From a virus, in the IMG/VR virus record IMGVR_UViG_3300045988_006127, positions 1 to 5,823 of that record: a stretch of DNA of 5,823 nt; one strand, written 5' to 3'. The position numbers were made by a program, and so were the translations under genes. Below, in pieces: positions 1 to 5,823 of this stretch. A model generated the notes under the pieces. That model had not been told where the DNA came from. It made no database searches and saw nothing but the letters and a program-made list of their open reading frames with translations. Within the stretch, counting starts at the first letter, position 1. The number at the start of each line of letters is the position of its first letter.

Positions 1-99
1 AATAATGAATGGATTAGCCGAGCTCCGCATACGCTACGCACGGCAAGGCGCTAAAGCGCCATTCAAACCAAAAAACAATTGACAAGCGACAAAAAAAAT
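1..99. repeat. Terminal direct repeat, copy A (identical to 5725-5823); circular-assembly overlap
   Basis: Base-by-base comparison: aataatgaatggattagccgagctcc...gacaagcgacaaaaaaaat is identical at both ends (99/99). Confidence 0.95.
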
Positions 100-107
100 G
101 ATATAAT
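79..107 (+). promoter_or_regulatory. Consensus sigma70/sigmaA-type promoter with extended -10
   Basis: TTGACA at 79-84, exactly 17-nt spacer, TATAAT at 102-107 preceded by TG at 99-100 (TGaTATAAT). A-rich tract at 68-78 upstream. It lies about 25 nt upstream of the peptidase start codon. Confidence 0.8.
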
Positions 108-132
108 CAAAACAGAAAGCGAGGAAACGGCC

Positions 133-525
133 ATGAGCATTAAAAGCTACCTTGTAAATACTGACGGAAACGTAAAACTAGCAAGACACTTCAAAGTAAA
201 AGAATTTGCTTGCAAAGACTTAAGTCCAGTAGTGTTTATAGATGAATATCTATGGAACGTGCTGGACATCCTCCGGCATAAACTAGGAAAACCGGTAATA
301 ATCACCAGCGGATACAGAACACCAGAGTGGAACACAAAATGCGGCGGAGCAAAATACAGCTATCATATGCGCGGTATGGCAGCAGACATCCGAGTAAATG
401 GAATGACACCGAAACAAGTAGCCAACATACTGAATGAAATTGTACCGGATGAATGCGGCATTATCGTATACAAAAGCTGGGTGCACTTTGACGTGCGCAA
501 AAGCAAATACAGAAAAGGGATCTGA
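133..525 (+). CDS. Zinc D,D- or L,D-peptidase of the LAS / peptidase M15 (M15A/M15_3, YcbK/MepK-like) family; probable cell-wall hydrolase (130 aa)
   Basis: ATG at 133 preceded by GAGGA (121-125). The track ORF starts at TTG 79, which is the -35 box. Motifs: SGYRTPEWN, H78-x6-D85 (YSYHMRGMAADI; codons at 364 and 385) and H118 in WVHFD (codon 484), i.e. the H/D/H zinc triad of LAS peptidases. No signal peptide or TM segment is visible. Confidence 0.85.
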   Translation: MSIKSYLVNTDGNVKLARHFKVKEFACKDLSPVVFIDEYLWNVLDILRHKLGKPVIITSGYRTPEWNTKCGGAKYSYHMRGMAADIRVNGMTPKQVANILNEIVPDECGIIVYKSWVHFDVRKSKYRKGI

Positions 526-609
526 ATGACCTAACGGCGCATACTGGACGGACAGGTTCCGCGAAGTCAATAGTATTAGGGCAATCAGAAACAGAAAGGA
601 GGTGTAACA

Positions 610-732
610 ATGGCACTGATTAGCATTAAAGACGTCAAACAGGCAATCCGGCTTATGATGCAGATTCTCGAAAAGCTTGACGAAATCTATCACGCGCTGC
701 ATGATAGCGTCAACGAAAAAGAAAAGGAGTAA
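610..732 (+). CDS. Small hypothetical protein, 40 aa (MALISIKDVKQAIRLMMQILEKLDEIYHALHDSVNEKEKE), not in the supplied ORF track
   Basis: Near-perfect SD AAAGGAGGTG at 595-604, 7 nt from GGAGG to ATG 610. TAA at 730-732. The stop is followed 2 nt later by the next ATG, and that gene's SD lies inside this ORF's 3' end. Predicted amphipathic helix with an acidic C-terminus. Confidence 0.6.
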   Translation: MALISIKDVKQAIRLMMQILEKLDEIYHALHDSVNEKEKE

Positions 733-734
733 CC

Positions 735-962
735 ATGATGCAAAAAACATGGAATGTACGCGACCAGACCAAAGAAGCAATTGAAGAGCTGCTCGAACGA
801 AAATACAAAGAAATTGATGGCAATTACAAAATGCTTAAAAAAGTGTCAAACATCGAGGATGCAAAAAAGCTAATAGATGAAATTTGGCAGATGAAAAGCT
901 TTGCATATGCCATGGAGTTAGAGCTAATGCGAAGGGAGTATAACAATGGGACGACATCGTAA
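735..962 (+). CDS. Small hypothetical protein, 75 aa, helical and charged, function unknown
   Basis: SD AAAGGAG at 723-729, ATG at 735 (second ATG at 738). Same strand and tight packing with neighbours. No motif I recognise. Confidence 0.65.
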   Translation: MMQKTWNVRDQTKEAIEELLERKYKEIDGNYKMLKKVSNIEDAKKLIDEIWQMKSFAYAMELELMRREYNNGTTS

Positions 963-1068
963 AGCAATGAACGGCGCAAAAGACCGCCGTATGTTTAACG
1001 TAACCGCACGAAAAACCAAAACCATCAACCTTAGCCAGAAACCTATGCGCGGTGGCATCCGGCTGTAA
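946..1068 (+). CDS. Small highly basic DNA-binding/packaging protein (phiX174 J analogue; gokushovirus ORF8/VP8-like), 40 aa
   Basis: Hand translation: MGRHRKAMNGAKDRRMFNVTARKTKTINLSQKPMRGGIRL. 12 of 40 residues are K/R. The C-terminal PMRGGIRL matches what I recall from Chlamydia-phage/gokushovirus ORF8 proteins. SD GGGAG at 934-938, ATG at 946, 17-nt overlap with the upstream ORF. Not in the ORF track because it is too short. Confidence 0.75.
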   Translation: MGRHRKAMNGAKDRRMFNVTARKTKTINLSQKPMRGGIRL

Positions 1069-1086
1069 AAAAGGAGAATAAATATC

Positions 1087-1326
1087 ATGAAACATGAATA
1101 TTTTGGTCTGTGGGACAGTGTAGCAAAGTGCTATGCATGGGTAGGCGAGAGCAAGAACAATGCAACCTTTGCACGTATGTGCAACGTAATGGCAAAGGAT
1201 GAAAAAACGTTTGTTGGACAGGCACCGGACGACTATACCGGCTTTAAACTGGCAGAGTTTAACGACGAGACCGGAACCTTTGAAAACTGCAAGGAAAAAG
1301 TATGGGAGGGCAAGCCGCTTGAATAA
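1087..1326 (+). CDS. VP5-like small non-structural protein (gokushovirus ORF5; proposed phiX174 protein C analogue), 79 aa
   Basis: SD AAGGAG at 1071-1076, ATG at 1087. Its size, its position just upstream of VP3/VP1, and the pattern YFGLWDSVA...PDDYTGFKLAEFNDETG resemble my recollection of VP5 (F.D..A...DY.L..G.FD..TG). The CDS call is solid. The functional label is moderate. Confidence 0.7.
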   Translation: MKHEYFGLWDSVAKCYAWVGESKNNATFARMCNVMAKDEKTFVGQAPDDYTGFKLAEFNDETGTFENCKEKVWEGKPLE

Positions 1327-1334
1327 ACGATACG

Positions 1335-1360
1335 AAGAAGGGCGAACGCCCTTCTTTTCT
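1335..1360 (+). terminator. Intrinsic terminator/attenuator hairpin between the VP5-like gene and VP3
   Basis: AAGAAGGGC (1335-1343), loop GAAC, GCCCTTCTT (1348-1356), followed by TTCT. 9-bp stem and a short U-tract, 9 nt after the TAA at 1324-1326. Confidence 0.6.
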
Positions 1361-1375
1361 GCATCAGGAGAAAAA

Positions 1376-1717
1376 ATGCGAAAGCAATACGTCTGGACAA
1401 AAGACGAAAAAGGACAAGAAGTGCTGCAAGAAACAGCACCAATAGACATCCAACAGGAAATTGAATCGTACTCGGAAGAGTGTGATATCAAAAACATTGT
1501 CCGAAAAGCAAGTTTTGACCCGCAATTTCTGAAAAGCCTGTCACAGGGAGCGCTGGAAGGAACAGAGGTGGATATTACAGAATTTCCGCAAAACATCCAT
1601 GAGTATCACCGCATGATTGCAACAGCACAGGTAAACGCCATGAAACTTGAAGAACTACAAAAAACGGCAACAGCGGAACCTAAAGAAGAACCTAAAGCAA
1701 AGGAGGGAGAAGAGTGA
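1376..1717 (+). CDS. VP3: Internal scaffolding protein VP3 (113 aa)
   Basis: ATG at 1376 preceded by GGAG (1367-1370). The track ORF from 1199 would overlap the previous gene and run through the terminator hairpin. ECDIKNIVRK...GTEVDITEFPQNIHEYHRMIATAQ resembles the gokushovirus VP3 scaffold core. Acidic/lysine-rich tail. The stop overlaps the VP1 start. Confidence 0.75.
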   Translation: MRKQYVWTKDEKGQEVLQETAPIDIQQEIESYSEECDIKNIVRKASFDPQFLKSLSQGALEGTEVDITEFPQNIHEYHRMIATAQVNAMKLEELQKTATAEPKEEPKAKEGEE

Positions 1718-3378
1718 ACCGAAACAATGAACGGCACTTTAACCAAATTCCGGAAATGAAAGCGAGTCGAACGCGGTTTAACCGTGACCAGACGATTTTA
1801 ACAACGTTCGATTCCGGCAAGCTGATTCCATTTTACGTTGACGAGGTATTGCCGGGCGACACCTTTAACGTAGACACGGCAGCAATCATCAGAATGACCA
1901 CACCGAAGTATCCTGTTTTCGATGACGCATTCATCGATTTTTACTACTTCTACTGTCCTAACCGTATCTTATGGGATGACTTCAAACAATTTATGGGAGA
2001 AGTCGAAAACAAGCCTTGGATGCCAACAAAGGACTACAAAGTACCGCAAATCGTAATAAAAGGAACAACAGAAAAAGGCTGCCCAAATGAAAATTCAATC
2101 TTGGACTATATGGGAGTACCAACAAAAATTGGCGCACAATTCTCAATCAACGCACTTCCAATCAGAGCATATGTCATGATATGGAACGAGTTTTTCCGAG
2201 ACGAAAACGTTGAAAACGCAGCAGTATGGAAAAGCACCAGCGAAGATGTAGAATATCAAGACACAAACGATGAAGATAACCTTGAAGGAAATTTACAGCG
2301 GGCAATCGCAGGAGGTAGGTGCTTACCGGTAAACAAATTCCATGACTACTTTACAAGTTGTATGCCTTATCCTCAGCGCGGGCCGGCAGTGACGCTGCCG
2401 ATGGAAGGTAATGCAGCTATATTCACAGGTGACATCTACGGGAGACCCAAAGAAACCTCTATCTTCCTTTGCAACACTACACCAAACCAGCAAGGACGTC
2501 TAACTTCAATAAGCTTCAAAAACAGCTATTTAACGGACGTACTAGGAAGCACAAAAGCAACCGGAACGGGTGGACAGGACACAGACGGATACTTATATGC
2601 AGACCTTAGCACAGTAACAGCAGCAACCATCAACGACTTGCGCAAGGCCGTAGCAGTACAGCAGTACTACGAAGCGCTTGCAAGAGGTGGTAGCCGTTAC
2701 CGTGAACAGGTACAAGCACTATGGGACGTAGTAATCAGCGATAAAACCGTGCAGGTGCCGGAATACCTTGGCGGTGGCAGATATCACGTCAATATTAACC
2801 AAATCGTGCAGACCAGCGGTCAGCAGACCAACGAAGACACGCCCATAGGTGAAACTGGAGCAATGTCAGTGACACCCATCAATGAAAGCAGTTTCACAAA
2901 ATCTTTTGAAGAGCATGGCTTTGTAATTGGCGTATGTTGCGTCCGACACAATCACAGTTATCAGCAAGGCTTGGAGCGTTTTTGGAGCAGAACCGACAGA
3001 CTAGATTACTATGTACCTCAGTTCGCAAACTTGGGGGAACAGCCTGTCAAAAAGAAAGAAATCATGTTGACAGGCAAAGCAACAGACGAAGAAACATTTG
3101 GGTATCAGGAGGCCTGGGCAGATTATCGCATGAAACCTAATCGGGTTTCAGGCCTCATGAGAAGCAACACAACCGGCAGTCTAGACTTCTGGCACTATGC
3201 AGACAACTACAAAAACGTACCGACGCTATCGCAGGAATGGATGAAAGAAGGAAAAGAAGAAATTGCACGCACACTCATCGTGCAAGATGAACCACAATTT
3301 TTCGGAGCAATCCGCATAGCAAACAAAACCACGAGACGGATGCCGTTATACAGCGTACCGGGCTTGTATAAACTGTAA
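1714..3378 (+). CDS. VP1: Major capsid protein VP1 (phiX174 F-protein family), 554 aa
   Basis: GTG start at 1714 overlaps the VP3 TGA (GTGA), with SD GGAGG at 1702-1706. The N-terminal ...RTRFNRDQTILTTFDSGKLIPFYVDEVLPGDTF... is the hallmark microvirus capsid motif. Size and position are typical. Confidence 0.93.
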   Translation: MNRNNERHFNQIPEMKASRTRFNRDQTILTTFDSGKLIPFYVDEVLPGDTFNVDTAAIIRMTTPKYPVFDDAFIDFYYFYCPNRILWDDFKQFMGEVENKPWMPTKDYKVPQIVIKGTTEKGCPNENSILDYMGVPTKIGAQFSINALPIRAYVMIWNEFFRDENVENAAVWKSTSEDVEYQDTNDEDNLEGNLQRAIAGGRCLPVNKFHDYFTSCMPYPQRGPAVTLPMEGNAAIFTGDIYGRPKETSIFLCNTTPNQQGRLTSISFKNSYLTDVLGSTKATGTGGQDTDGYLYADLSTVTAATINDLRKAVAVQQYYEALARGGSRYREQVQALWDVVISDKTVQVPEYLGGGRYHVNINQIVQTSGQQTNEDTPIGETGAMSVTPINESSFTKSFEEHGFVIGVCCVRHNHSYQQGLERFWSRTDRLDYYVPQFANLGEQPVKKKEIMLTGKATDEETFGYQEAWADYRMKPNRVSGLMRSNTTGSLDFWHYADNYKNVPTLSQEWMKEGKEEIARTLIVQDEPQFFGAIRIANKTTRRMPLYSVPGLYKL

Positions 3379-3389
3379 GAAAGGAGGAT

Positions 3390-3415
3390 GCCCGGGCAAA
3401 ACCCGGGCTATTTTT
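3390..3415 (+). terminator. Rho-independent terminator after VP1
   Basis: GCCCGGG (3390-3396), loop CAAAA, CCCGGGC (3402-3408), then TATTTTT (3409-3415). Begins 12 nt after the VP1 stop. Confidence 0.75.
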
Positions 3416-3417
3416 AA

Positions 3418-4278
3418 ATGGGCGCATTATCAGGATTCTTAACAGCACTAAACGTAGCGGGAAACGTAGCAAACACAATCGGAACTTTTGCAGGAGCAGC
3501 TAAAAACGTAGCCGGAGCGTTTGGCGGATGGGGACAGACAGGCAATAGCCAAAGTAGCGGCGGCAGCATAAGCCAAGGCGGCGGACATTCCGAAAGCGGA
3601 AGTCAATCCGGCACAAACGTGCAACAGGTCAACGAATGGCTAAAACAAGCATACGCATACCAAGGGCAAGAAGCAGCCATGCAAGGTAAATACAACAGTC
3701 AAAGCATGCTTAAACAAATGGGTTACAACACCTTACAAGCAATCATGCAAGGCGTATACAACCACATTGAAAACAGCGTAGCAATGAACTACAACAGTGC
3801 AGAAGCACTAGCAAACCGTGAATGGCAAGAACACATGTCAAACACAGCATACCAGCGAGCCGTAGAGGACATGAAAAAAGCAGGGCTTAACCCTATCTTA
3901 GCGTTCTCAAACGGCGGCGCAAGCACACCGGGAGGAAGTGCAGGAACAATCAGTGGAGCAAGTATGGGACTTGCAAGCAGCAGCGCACTAGGAGTAAGCC
4001 GAAGCAGCGGATTTGTACCAAATGCATACTCAAGCTCAAGCTGGAGTAAAAGTGACTGGTATAATGCTGCACAAAGCTGGCAACAAATGCTTAGTTCAAC
4101 GCACATGACACCATATGGACTGCAAAAGGCGCTTACAAAAGTCGGAAACGACACAAACAAGGCCATTACAGATGCAACGGAAAAAGGAAAATACGCAGAA
4201 CAAAGCAGAAGCATAAAGCCACAAGACAAAACAGGAACATACGGAGAAAAGCGAAAGCCGGGTGATTATTTGAAGTGA
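3418..4278 (+). CDS. VP2: DNA pilot / minor capsid protein VP2 (phiX174 H analogue), 286 aa
   Basis: Hydrophobic Gly/Ala-rich N-terminus, then a Gly/Ser/Gln low-complexity stretch (about nt 3523-3612). Conserved gokushovirus VP2 motif SNTAYQRAVEDMKKAGLNPILAF (nt 3838-3906). An in-frame TAA immediately upstream fixes the ATG at 3418. Confidence 0.88.
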   Translation: MGALSGFLTALNVAGNVANTIGTFAGAAKNVAGAFGGWGQTGNSQSSGGSISQGGGHSESGSQSGTNVQQVNEWLKQAYAYQGQEAAMQGKYNSQSMLKQMGYNTLQAIMQGVYNHIENSVAMNYNSAEALANREWQEHMSNTAYQRAVEDMKKAGLNPILAFSNGGASTPGGSAGTISGASMGLASSSALGVSRSSGFVPNAYSSSSWSKSDWYNAAQSWQQMLSSTHMTPYGLQKALTKVGNDTNKAITDATEKGKYAEQSRSIKPQDKTGTYGEKRKPGDYLK

Positions 4279-5294
4279 GTTGTTACAAGCCATTAATAAG
4301 GCTGTACGACCCTAACGACAAAAACATTAGCGGGAGGGTGTATTCACTCTCCCGCTATTCTCAGTTAGCGGGAAAGCAGCTAAAATATGAAGATCTAATG
4401 TACAGAAAAGATGTAATGCTGATACCATGTGGGCAGTGCATCGGATGCAGAATAAGGCAAAGGGAAGACTGGACAACACGAATAGAATTAGAAGCACGAG
4501 ACTATCCAAAAGAAGAAGTATGGTTTATCACATTAACTTATGATGATGAGCATGTACCGGGCATGATAGTAAACACAGGCGAAATCATGAGAAAAGTACA
4601 ATACGTCTGGAAACCGGGAGAGAAGCGCCCTGAAAGCGTCCAAACGTTGCTATATACTGACGTTCAAAAATTCTTAAAACGTCTCAGGAAGGCTTATAGG
4701 GGCAAATTACGCTATTTTGTAGCGGGAGAATACGGAGAACAGACGGCAAGGCCACATTACCATATGATTTTATACGGATGGCGGCCAACAGACCTAGAAC
4801 ATCTATACAAGATACAACACAACGGATATTACACAAGTAAATGGCTAGCAGACCTATGGGGCATGGGTCAAATACAGATAGCACAAGCAGCACCGGAAAC
4901 ATATAGATATGTTGCAGGATACGTCACGAAAAAAATGTACGAGATAGACGGTCAAAAAGCAAACACATACTACGAACTAGGGCAACAAAAGCCTTTTGCG
5001 TGTATGAGTCTTAAACCAGGACTAGGAGACCACTACTATCAAGAACACAAAGCAGAAATCTGGAGACAAGGGTATATCCAATGCACAAACGGCAAACGCG
5101 CACAAATTCCACGTTATTATGAAAAAATGATGGAAGCAGAAAACCCACAAAGGTTGTGGAGAATTAAACAGAACAGACAAGCAGCAGCCATAGCAGAAAA
5201 CCGACTAAAGTACGAAAATACAGACTTTGCAGAACAGTGCAAAACGAAAGAAAGAGTGATAAAGAAGCAGATGAAGAAGAGAGGGACACTTTAA
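4275..5294 (+). CDS. VP4: Rolling-circle replication initiator VP4 (HUH endonuclease, phiX174 A analogue), 339 aa
   Basis: GTG start overlaps the VP2 TGA (GTGA at 4275-4278). Motif I FITLTY (4524-4541), motif II HYH in RPHYHMILYG (4755-4763), motif III with two catalytic tyrosines YVAGYVTKK (4908 onward). N-terminal CGQCIGCR cysteine cluster is typical of gokushovirus VP4. Confidence 0.93.
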   Translation: MSCYKPLIRLYDPNDKNISGRVYSLSRYSQLAGKQLKYEDLMYRKDVMLIPCGQCIGCRIRQREDWTTRIELEARDYPKEEVWFITLTYDDEHVPGMIVNTGEIMRKVQYVWKPGEKRPESVQTLLYTDVQKFLKRLRKAYRGKLRYFVAGEYGEQTARPHYHMILYGWRPTDLEHLYKIQHNGYYTSKWLADLWGMGQIQIAQAAPETYRYVAGYVTKKMYEIDGQKANTYYELGQQKPFACMSLKPGLGDHYYQEHKAEIWRQGYIQCTNGKRAQIPRYYEKMMEAENPQRLWRIKQNRQAAAIAENRLKYENTDFAEQCKTKERVIKKQMKKRGTL

Positions 5295-5305
5295 CAGTGT
5301 CATGG

Positions 5306-5353
5306 TGTCACCTAGCCAAGTACCTATCAAGTAAGGTACTTGGCTAAGTGTCA
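5306..5353 (+). promoter_or_regulatory. Long imperfect hairpin immediately after VP4 (possible terminator or ssDNA structural element)
   Basis: Perfect 13-bp stem TAGCCAAGTACCT (5313-5325) / AGGTACTTGGCTA (5334-5346), loop ATCAAGTA. It extends to 5306/5353 with two mismatches. No clear T-run follows. GTGTCA occurs three times (5297, 5305, 5348). Confidence 0.6.
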
Positions 5354-5385
5354 TTTAAAAGGTCCATGTATCAGTCTATTCAGTG

Positions 5386-5418
5386 AATAAAAAGGGGCTG
5401 ACCTAAAGTCAGCCCCTT
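5386..5418 (-). terminator. Textbook intrinsic terminator oriented on the minus strand
   Basis: Minus strand reads AAGGGGCTGAC-TTTAG-GTCAGCCCCTT followed by TTTATT (11-bp GC-rich stem, 5-nt loop, U-tract). On the + strand the stem (5392-5402 / 5408-5418) is followed by GCGTCGCG with no U-tract. Confidence 0.6.
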
Positions 5419-5447
5419 GCGTCGCGCCCCAATCTTGGGGCTGCCGC

Positions 5448-5499
5448 TGTGCGCACGCGCGCACGCGCGCGCAAACGCGCACGCGCACACGTGCGCATA
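5448..5499. repeat. GC-rich perfectly alternating pyrimidine/purine tract (CG/CA/TG dinucleotides; CGCGCAC-type repeats)
   Basis: Uninterrupted Py-Pu alternation over 5448-5473 (26 nt) and Pu-Py over 5475-5499 (25 nt), separated by a single A. The outer arms TGCGCACG (5450-5457) and CGTGCGCA (5490-5497) are complementary. It is a strong compositional outlier next to AT-rich DNA. Confidence 0.85.
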
Positions 5500-5598
5500 A
5501 TATTATATAACTTGTTGTAGTCGTAGTAATAGAGGTAGTGGAAAAGTTGAAAAGTACTAAAATTTAGCGCTAAAACGTAAATAAAAAGCAAAAAACAA

Positions 5599-5710
5599 TG
5601 TTGAAAGTTTTGTTGAAAGCTTGTTGAAATGTTGAAAGTTCGTCAAAATGACGAAAAGCATTGTACAACTTTATGTTGAAAACCTGTTGAAAGTGTTGAA
5701 AGTGTTGAAA
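5599..5710 (+). repeat. Iteron-like array: eight direct copies of TGTTGAAA in two clusters of four
   Basis: Exact TGTTGAAA at 5599, 5611, 5622, 5630 and at 5674, 5685, 5694, 5703 (start-to-start spacings 12, 11, 8, 44, 11, 9, 9). One degenerate copy AGTTGAAA at 5545. All copies have the same orientation. Scanning by eye, I found no exact copy in the coding regions. Confidence 0.85.
5639..5655. promoter_or_regulatory. Small hairpin centred between the two iteron clusters
   Basis: TTCGTCA (5639-5645), loop AAA, TGACGAA (5649-5655), a 7-bp stem. It is followed by the 8-nt palindrome TTGTACAA (5661-5668). Confidence 0.6.
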
Positions 5711-5724
5711 ACGCGCACAGCGCT

Positions 5725-5823
5725 AATAATGAATGGATTAGCCGAGCTCCGCATACGCTACGCACGGCAAGGCGCTAAAGCGCCATTCAAACCAAAAAAC
5801 AATTGACAAGCGACAAAAAAAAT
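5725..5823. repeat. Terminal direct repeat, copy B (identical to 1-99)
   Basis: Same 99-nt string as 1-99. It cuts the promoter between the -35 and -10 elements, as expected for an arbitrary linearisation point and not a biological end. Confidence 0.95.

Follow-up and report, generated by a model that had tools for sequence, protein, structure and literature searches.

The M15 peptidase gene and its described relatives

To our knowledge, the lysis mechanism of the gokushoviruses, which are among the most abundant phages of the human gut, has not been shown experimentally. We consider here the gene for a predicted M15-type zinc peptidase, located at 133-525 on the + strand of IMG/VR record IMGVR_UViG_3300045988_006127 (positions 1 to 5,823; this whole stretch of 5,823 nt is called the window), a complete circular gokushovirus genome of 5,724 nt. 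Such peptidases have been the obvious candidates for gokushovirus lysis since 2012, when Roux et al. 2012 (PMC3394797) described M15_3 peptidase genes in five Gokushovirinae and six Alpavirinae from human samples, argued for their horizontal acquisition, noted that the gokushovirus copies are akin to those of Faecalibacterium, and proposed a role as endolysin. The same endolysin proposal was made in papers on marine and alphaproteobacterial microviruses, and Kirchberger et al. 2022 list peptidases among the lysis-associated accessory genes of microviruses. Related genes in GenBank are annotated as 'peptidase M15' (KX513868, KX513876, and KX513877) or as 'similar to peptidase' (MG945xxx), and a protein in nr named 'peptidase [Microviridae sp.]' is 97% identical to the window peptidase. 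Among tailed phages, the ST79 endolysin and LysPM1 are experimentally muralytic (PMC5025407, PMC13461873).

The window peptidase is an ordinary, already known member of this published class: gene family, virus group, habitat, and putative endolysin reading are those of the gut Gokushovirinae and Alpavirinae M15_3 peptidases, and nothing essential differs. An earlier sequence-only reading of this DNA had suspected as much, noting that the gene might not be unprecedented, and the 2012 study and later surveys bear this out; its description of the gene as an atypical acquisition does not hold, since the gene is found at the same position in every relative examined and homologues from a protein search fall into 1,095 clusters at 90% identity, the best 120 of which are mostly on contigs of ~5.7 kb. 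What is added here is the predicted place of the gene as first cistron of a single strong promoter, the clade-wide lack of transmembrane ORFs (open reading frames), and a very recent cross-lineage exchange (97% nt identity). The narrower question concerns a soluble endolysin-type enzyme that would be expressed first from the only strong promoter and has no recognisable membrane-disrupting partner throughout the clade; the route by which it reaches its substrate could point to action within the cytoplasm or to an unrecognised substitute for a holin.

The feature had originally been delimited as 79-525. A gene is indeed present there; its start at 79, however, is a mechanical TTG start that coincides with the -35 hexamer of a promoter, and the true start is the ATG at 133. 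The coding sequence (CDS; 133-525, with stop codon TGA at 523-525) yields a single-domain protein of 130 amino acids (aa), and a Shine-Dalgarno GAGG (121-124, +), read from the sequence, lies 8 nt 5' of the ATG. Close relatives keep the GAGG followed by a start codon (ATG; GTG in locus L021), and the N-termini of all homologues read M-[SN]-IKSY or MIKSY; longer versions in the databases (148-200 aa) probably owe their extra length to a start likewise placed too far upstream.

The assignment to the LAS/M15 family is confirmed by profile as well as fold comparison. The protein matches PF08291 (Peptidase_M15_3) with an E-value of 1.4e-23 and 83.5 bits (cut-off 23.2) across profile positions 2-108 of 108, and PHROG 894 ('endolysin') with an E-value of 4.9e-41, while the match to DUF882/Peptidase_M15_2 (PF05951) is weaker (31 bits) and secondary to PF08291. 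MepK, an L,D-endopeptidase (NCBIfam NF053624), was rejected as an assignment, its equivalog score of 41.2 bits falling well short of the cut-off of 185. The only significant sequence match in the PDB is 1lbu, the zinc DD-peptidase of Streptomyces albus G and type enzyme of M15A; a PDB profile search with a 28-sequence alignment gave no match beyond it. An AlphaFold2 model was built from 28 close homologues, each at least 76% identical to the query (mean predicted local distance difference test score (pLDDT) 73, predicted template-modelling score (pTM) 0.70). Among PDB folds, 1lbu again comes first (probability 1.00, E-value 4.6e-3, TM-score 0.45), followed by weaker matches to the M15-type cell-wall peptidases LysECD7, LdcB, ChiX, and EndoT5. 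In BFVD, 36 matches were obtained at E<=1e-3, the named ones being mostly 'Peptidase M15A' and several coming from marine microviruses. The comparison with M15A/M15_3 and MepK-type enzymes suggested in the sequence-only reading is thus settled in favour of the former, and the modelled fold agrees, at moderate confidence, with the LAS / Hedgehog-DD-peptidase type.

The motifs first seen by eye are all in place. SGYRTPEWN (S59-N67; 307-333, +) aligns with GGFRSVTCN of the 1lbu zinc DD-peptidase, and the H-x6-D...H zinc triad is completed by two further stretches: H78-x6-D85 (364-387, +), whose H78 and D85 are the first two predicted zinc ligands and pair with H154 and D161 in the 1lbu alignment (zinc-ligand numbering of 1lbu from PMC5025407, with H154/D161 counted from the alignment); and W116-V-H118-F-D120 (478-492, + strand, with W116-V-H118 at 478-486), a WxH motif as described in PMC5025407 that carries the third predicted ligand, with an acidic residue two positions on whose assigned role follows D106 of LysPM1 (PMC13461873). 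Invariant in 28 homologues are S59, G60, Y61, R62, T63, P64, W66, and N67 of the first motif as well as H78, D85, W116, V117, H118, and D120. In the alignment with the ST79, FP_oengus, and Vibrio phage endolysins, H-x6-D is also invariant and WVH is common to all. The ratio of nonsynonymous to synonymous substitution rates (dN/dS) has a median of 0.16 (range 0.06-0.30; 492 pairs), which indicates purifying selection. As judged from sequence comparison, this is a real and functional gene of the M15A subfamily, and its product is a MEROPS M15A / Pfam PF08291 LAS-type zinc peptidase with predicted zinc-dependent hydrolysis of peptidoglycan peptides.

Promoter, transcript, and exchange of the promoter-peptidase block

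Upstream of the peptidase a sigma-70-type promoter (79-107, +) is predicted with a 12/12 match. It consists of the -35 hexamer TTGACA (79-84), a 17-nt spacer, and the extended -10 element TGaTATAAT (99-107), as the sequence-only reading had pointed out. It is the sole 12/12 match in the window; a partial second copy (5803-5823) results from the assembly overlap of the circle, bases 1-99 being identical to 5725-5823. With one mismatch allowed, the extended pattern occurred in none of 200 dinucleotide-preserving shuffles. For comparison the window was set beside 32 complete circular IMG/VR relatives, all rotated to the peptidase start. The peptidase occupies the same position in the window, in all 32 relatives (which answers the call for a search of related microvirus contigs), and in KT264792. 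TG-extended promoters (at least 10/12 matches) are present in the window and in 26 of the 32; in all of these they are confined to a site 47-464 nt upstream of the peptidase, the rest of the coding strand being free of them, and three further genomes carry 12/12 promoters without the TG in the same place. Among relatives the -10 hexamer varies (TATAAT, TATCAT, TACAAT, TAAAAT, TATTAT), with spacing and TG kept.

In the window, a terminator scan found no terminator-like site between the peptidase and the downstream genes. The first G+C-rich terminator-like hairpin downstream of the promoter (GCCCGGGcaaaaCCCGGGC, then TATTTTT; 3390-3408, +) lies just past the VP1 gene, and is likely an attenuation point of the transcript that starts with the peptidase; a weaker terminator-like site is located at 1919-1937 (+). 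Because promoters occur only upstream of the peptidase and no terminator-like site parts the gene from those downstream, the promoter at 79-107 is best read as the single strong, principal promoter of the genome, and not as the peptidase's own, as had been proposed; the peptidase is then the predicted first cistron (the second in relatives with an extra ORF of ~60 aa), and the message is best read as also carrying the scaffold and capsid genes. The predicted 5' untranslated region would measure ~19 nt if transcription starts near 114. Going by established promoter knowledge, such strong Shine-Dalgarno sites together with an extended -10 would be expected in a Firmicutes-like or proteobacterial host more than in one of the Bacteroidota.

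About half of the relatives carry a variable hydrophilic ORF of 50-77 aa between promoter and peptidase. These ORFs lie ~190-230 nt upstream of the peptidase and comprise at least four unrelated sequence types (loci L018, L020, L033, L039, L044, L046, L047, L050, L055, and others; the ORF of L039 has two CxxC pairs). Accessory genes thus seem to have a hotspot in this slot.

The peptidases nearest to that of the window (97-98% aa identity; L003-L006) belong to genomes whose VP1 and VP4 are only ~40% and ~38% identical, respectively, to those of the window. In a blastn comparison with L004, the VP1 of which is only ~41% aa identical to the window VP1, a promoter-peptidase block of 626 nt (1-612 plus 5711-5724, +) stands out at 97.3% nt identity; outside this block the two genomes share few short matches of 72-87% identity. 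The block comprises 146 nt upstream of the gene (promoter included), the CDS, and an 84-nt 3' spacer that separates the peptidase from the next ORF (526-609, +) and contains no terminator-like site. Many same-backbone relatives are without this spacer, their 40-aa ORF lying within ~5 nt of the peptidase. The number of synonymous substitutions per site (dS) in the peptidase is 0.05 between window and L003, vs 0.31 between window and its nearest whole-genome relative, L008. Over the 33 genomes, median peptidase identity is 81% between the two backbone lineages and likewise 81% within each lineage, and 14 of the 33 peptidases have their nearest neighbour in the other lineage. The promoter-peptidase block behaves as a module that moves between two distantly related gokushovirus backbones, probably as they share hosts, and the exchange with the L004 lineage, to judge from these identities, is very recent and includes the promoter. 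Module exchange as a phenomenon was already reported in 2022, when Kirchberger et al. 2022 described one case of peptidase exchange between microvirus families; the window case is a much more recent instance. Free exchange of the block between distant backbones also marks the gene as host-adapted, and so makes it useful for linking uncultured microviruses that share hosts. A 10.9-kb contig (L016; IMGVR_UViG_3300045988_007630) with a peptidase 85% identical was considered as a tailed-phage donor and rejected: it holds two microvirus gene sets head to tail, with two VP4 genes (30% and 94% identity to the window) and two VP1 genes (50% and 75%), and is probably an assembly chimera.

The surroundings of the 5' end of the block (5711-5724, +), which directly follows the last GTTGAAA repeat, have features of their own. 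Nine direct copies of GTTGAAA lie at 5546-5710, all on the + strand, and the whole window has 10 (1.3 expected), a number reached in none of 200 shuffles; the end of the array coincides exactly with the 5' border of the exchanged block. The other lineage (L003, L004, L009, L018, L033) carries the same ~200-nt module inverted (TTTCAAC, 5-7 copies) between VP2 and VP4, which suggests a candidate protein-binding array in duplex DNA that works in either orientation. An ORF of 52 aa (5648-5806) crosses the array, reading it as VENLLKVLKVLK, and has its TGA stop inside the -35 hexamer; it was rejected as coding on account of an insertion within the ORF in the nearest relative L008, and is probably non-coding. 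Between array and promoter lies a non-coding element of ~95 nt, ACGCGCACAGCGC...GGCGCTAAAGCGCC... (5706-5724 plus 1-78, also 5725-5802), near-invariant across both backbone lineages and with short GC hairpins; its fold as single-stranded DNA (ssDNA) is no better than that of shuffles (z -0.95). It may serve as a cis element and recombination anchor.

Mode of action and alternative readings

We consider it probable that the peptidase is a cytoplasmic endolysin awaiting a membrane lesion. According to this reading, a long multi-gene message starting from the promoter at 79-107 would carry the peptidase first, then the small ORFs, VP5, VP3, and VP1, so that the enzyme would be produced throughout infection; having no export signal, it would probably build up harmlessly in the cytoplasm; lysis would hinge on a separate event that breaches the cytoplasmic membrane, for which no phage gene is identifiable; and the small, soluble, single-domain M15A enzyme would then cut peptide links of the host peptidoglycan and let the progeny exit. 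Family membership, catalytic motifs, purifying selection, conserved position, single promoter, lack of transmembrane ORFs, and module exchange were computed here; muralytic activity, the lysis role, cytoplasmic accumulation, and the need for a membrane lesion are what we infer.

Several points weigh against an endolysin of this kind. Stop-to-stop + strand frames of at least 25 aa were scanned for an 18-residue Kyte-Doolittle mean of at least 1.4; in the window no such frame passes, leaving it without a holin-like or transmembrane ORF, and the highest value (1.22) belongs to the VP2 N-terminus, MGALSGFLTALNVAGNVA. The 32 relatives show only sporadic, non-conserved segments of 1.5-1.7, and no convincing holin-like protein. 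The peptidase itself (N-terminus MSIKSYLVNTDGNVKLARHFKVKEF, C-terminus RKSKYRKGI) is without signal peptide, signal-arrest-release (SAR) segment, membrane anchor, or hydrophobic stretch. The early remark that signal peptide and holin-like ORF are missing from this genome is therefore correct, and extends to the whole clade: as there is neither an export signal in the enzyme nor a convincing holin in window or relatives, one essential step of the canonical endolysin pathway is without an identified component. In addition, lysis enzymes are not usually encoded by the first cistron of the only strong promoter; the structural model is of no more than moderate quality (pLDDT 73; TM-score 0.45 to 1lbu); a host search in bacterial genomes gave one distant match only (44% identity, in a Gastranaerophilales metagenome-assembled genome); and a full-text literature search returned no experimental test of any microvirus M15 peptidase.

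Other candidates for a membrane partner were examined and set aside. The ~60-aa ORFs between promoter and peptidase in relatives are all hydrophilic, with Kyte-Doolittle values <0.8; the small ORFs near the peptidase in the window are hydrophilic as well. A short overprinted ORF with an N-terminal transmembrane helix, of the phiX174 E type, was found in none of the three + frames. The many hydrophobic segments of minus-strand ORFs were put down to base composition, the coding strand being A-rich, since the minus strand has no strong promoter. Apart from these, in the lineage-B loci L004, L006, L009, L030, L033, L041, and L047 an alternative-frame segment, …LFLLCSVPSAVG…, which may be an overprinted membrane protein, recurs ~1,500-1,730 nt after the peptidase start, near the VP1 start; with Kyte-Doolittle values of 1.3-1.7 it is the most hydrophobic + strand segment there, and it is absent from the window.

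The lack of an export signal and of a holin in window and relatives would also suit a catalytic form of single-gene lysis, in which the cytoplasmic peptidase leaves the assembled wall alone and, acting like VanX/VanY, trims D-Ala-D-Ala-ended peptidoglycan precursors in the cytoplasm or inner leaflet (UDP-MurNAc-pentapeptide, lipid I/II): removal of D-Ala or cleavage of the stem peptide would starve transpeptidation, growing cells would lyse, and no holin would be needed, so that the outcome of phiX174 E, Qbeta A2, or LysM (a 'protein antibiotic') would be reached by catalysis. It is in keeping with this that E, A2, and LysM, which are mechanistically defined, all block lipid II supply (established knowledge; PMC10614894), that the family type enzyme 1lbu is a muramoyl-pentapeptide DD-carboxypeptidase, and that early constitutive transcription from the sole promoter suits a slow depletion clock. 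The close tailed-phage members of the family, however, are encoded in cassettes together with holins or spanins and directly break down sacculi or permeabilised cells, and sequence does not set the microvirus enzymes apart from them; we regard precursor cleavage as unlikely. In a weaker variant of this unlikely reading, the uncharged Gly/Ala-rich N-terminus of the pilot protein VP2 would double as the membrane-breaching factor.

The earlier proposal of a dedicated lysis or entry enzyme stands in its first part, lysis being the best reading of the gene, whereas its second part is very unlikely. An entry enzyme in or on the virion would open the peptidoglycan locally at DNA delivery, as do the virion-associated lysins of tailed phages, and M15A domains within very large phage proteins and Gp5-type baseplate proteins (BFVD) indicate that the fold is used for entry elsewhere; the window peptidase, by contrast, is a free-standing protein of 130 aa with no domain linking it to VP1, VP2, or VP3, and its swapping between backbones with VP1 only ~40% identical is hard to square with specific capsid docking. 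Hardest to credit is a non-lytic accessory role, for instance wall remodelling against superinfection or a receptor change, with lysis left to an unrecognised factor. Expression from the start of infection and a region that also hosts variable small accessory ORFs would agree with it, but all relatives examined have the gene, its position is fixed and it is under purifying selection, an enzyme kept in the cytoplasm could not reach the wall to remodel it, and no alternative lysis candidate was found.

Genome context and comparison with known lysis systems

All recognisable genes of the window are on the + strand, and as predicted from profile matches the gene set is gokushovirus-type. The peptidase (133-525; Pfam and PHROG matches) is followed by an ORF of 40 aa (610-732), an ORF of 75 aa (735-962), a basic protein of 40 aa (946-1068; phrog_10695), VP5 (1087-1326; PF20577), the VP3 scaffold protein (1376-1717; Chlamy_scaf), the VP1 capsid protein (1714-3378; Phage_F, E-value 1.4e-139), the VP2 pilot protein (3418-4278), and the VP4 replication protein (4275-5294). 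In GenBank, the genome most similar to the window is that of Gokushovirus WZ-2015a (KT264791; human faeces), with 85% nt identity across 92% of the genome; the peptidases of the two share 84% aa identity. For the ORFs at 610-732 and 735-962, Pfam, NCBIfam, and PHROG gave no function at a significant level, and neither ORF contains a hydrophobic segment. The former (MALISIKDVKQAIRLMMQILEKLDEIYHALHDSVNEKEKE) looks like a helical, acidic small protein; it is 68-100% conserved in same-backbone relatives and, at a different position, ~74% conserved in most members of the distant lineage. An Rfam scan of the window gave no RNA family.

Several hairpins lie along the predicted transcript and beyond it. 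Between VP5 and VP3, a 9-bp G+C-rich hairpin (AAGAAGGGCG-AACG-CGCCCTTCTT; 1335-1356) is followed by TTCTGC on the + strand; the terminator scan scored it as a terminator for the minus strand only, and it may attenuate or stabilise the long transcript. The VP2 start codon (ATG at 3418) is 31 nt from its only Shine-Dalgarno-like AGGAGG (3381-3386), with the hairpin at 3390-3408 in between, which suggests that folding brings the two closer and forms a split ribosome-binding site coupling termination and translation. Directly past the VP4 stop, the stretch 5295-5500 holds at least three very stable ssDNA hairpins (-62.8 kcal/mol, z -9.7), with a hairpin with 20-nt arms at 5306-5353, a hairpin AAGGGGCTGAC/GTCAGCCCCTT at 5392-5418, and an alternating purine-pyrimidine tract of GCGCAC type at 5443-5496; the hairpins are candidates for the complementary-strand origin and/or transcription terminators.

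Among experimentally characterised enzymes, the window peptidase (130 aa) can be set beside the single-domain M15A endolysins of tailed phages. The M15A peptidase of Burkholderia phage ST79 (132 aa; PMC5025407) and LysPM1 of a Proteus phage (116 aa; PMC13461873) resemble it in size, in having PF08291 as their only domain, in both motifs (HxxxxxxD and WxH), and in having 1lbu as nearest solved structure. The ST79 enzyme is only ~33-35% identical to it, and its gene is flanked by holin and spanin genes, neither of which the microvirus has. The endolysin of Faecalibacterium phage FP_oengus aligns with the window peptidase from end to end, basic C-terminal tail included, at 44% identity (tblastn; 46% with MAFFT). 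Directly downstream of it are a 79-aa protein whose N-terminus has a transmembrane segment and an 83-aa protein annotated as holin, without counterpart in the window. In 1lbu the H-x6-D motif aligns residue for residue with that of the window peptidase, yet 1lbu has 213 residues, only 44-48 of which align by sequence, and it is a D-Ala-D-Ala carboxypeptidase (DD-carboxypeptidase) and not a lysin. Like phiX174, the phage of the window has a small genome and can spare little coding capacity for the lysis of its host; the means differ, since protein E of phiX174 is a membrane protein, overprinted in another gene, that inhibits MraY, whereas the lysis candidate of the window is a predicted soluble enzyme encoded by a non-overlapping gene of its own.

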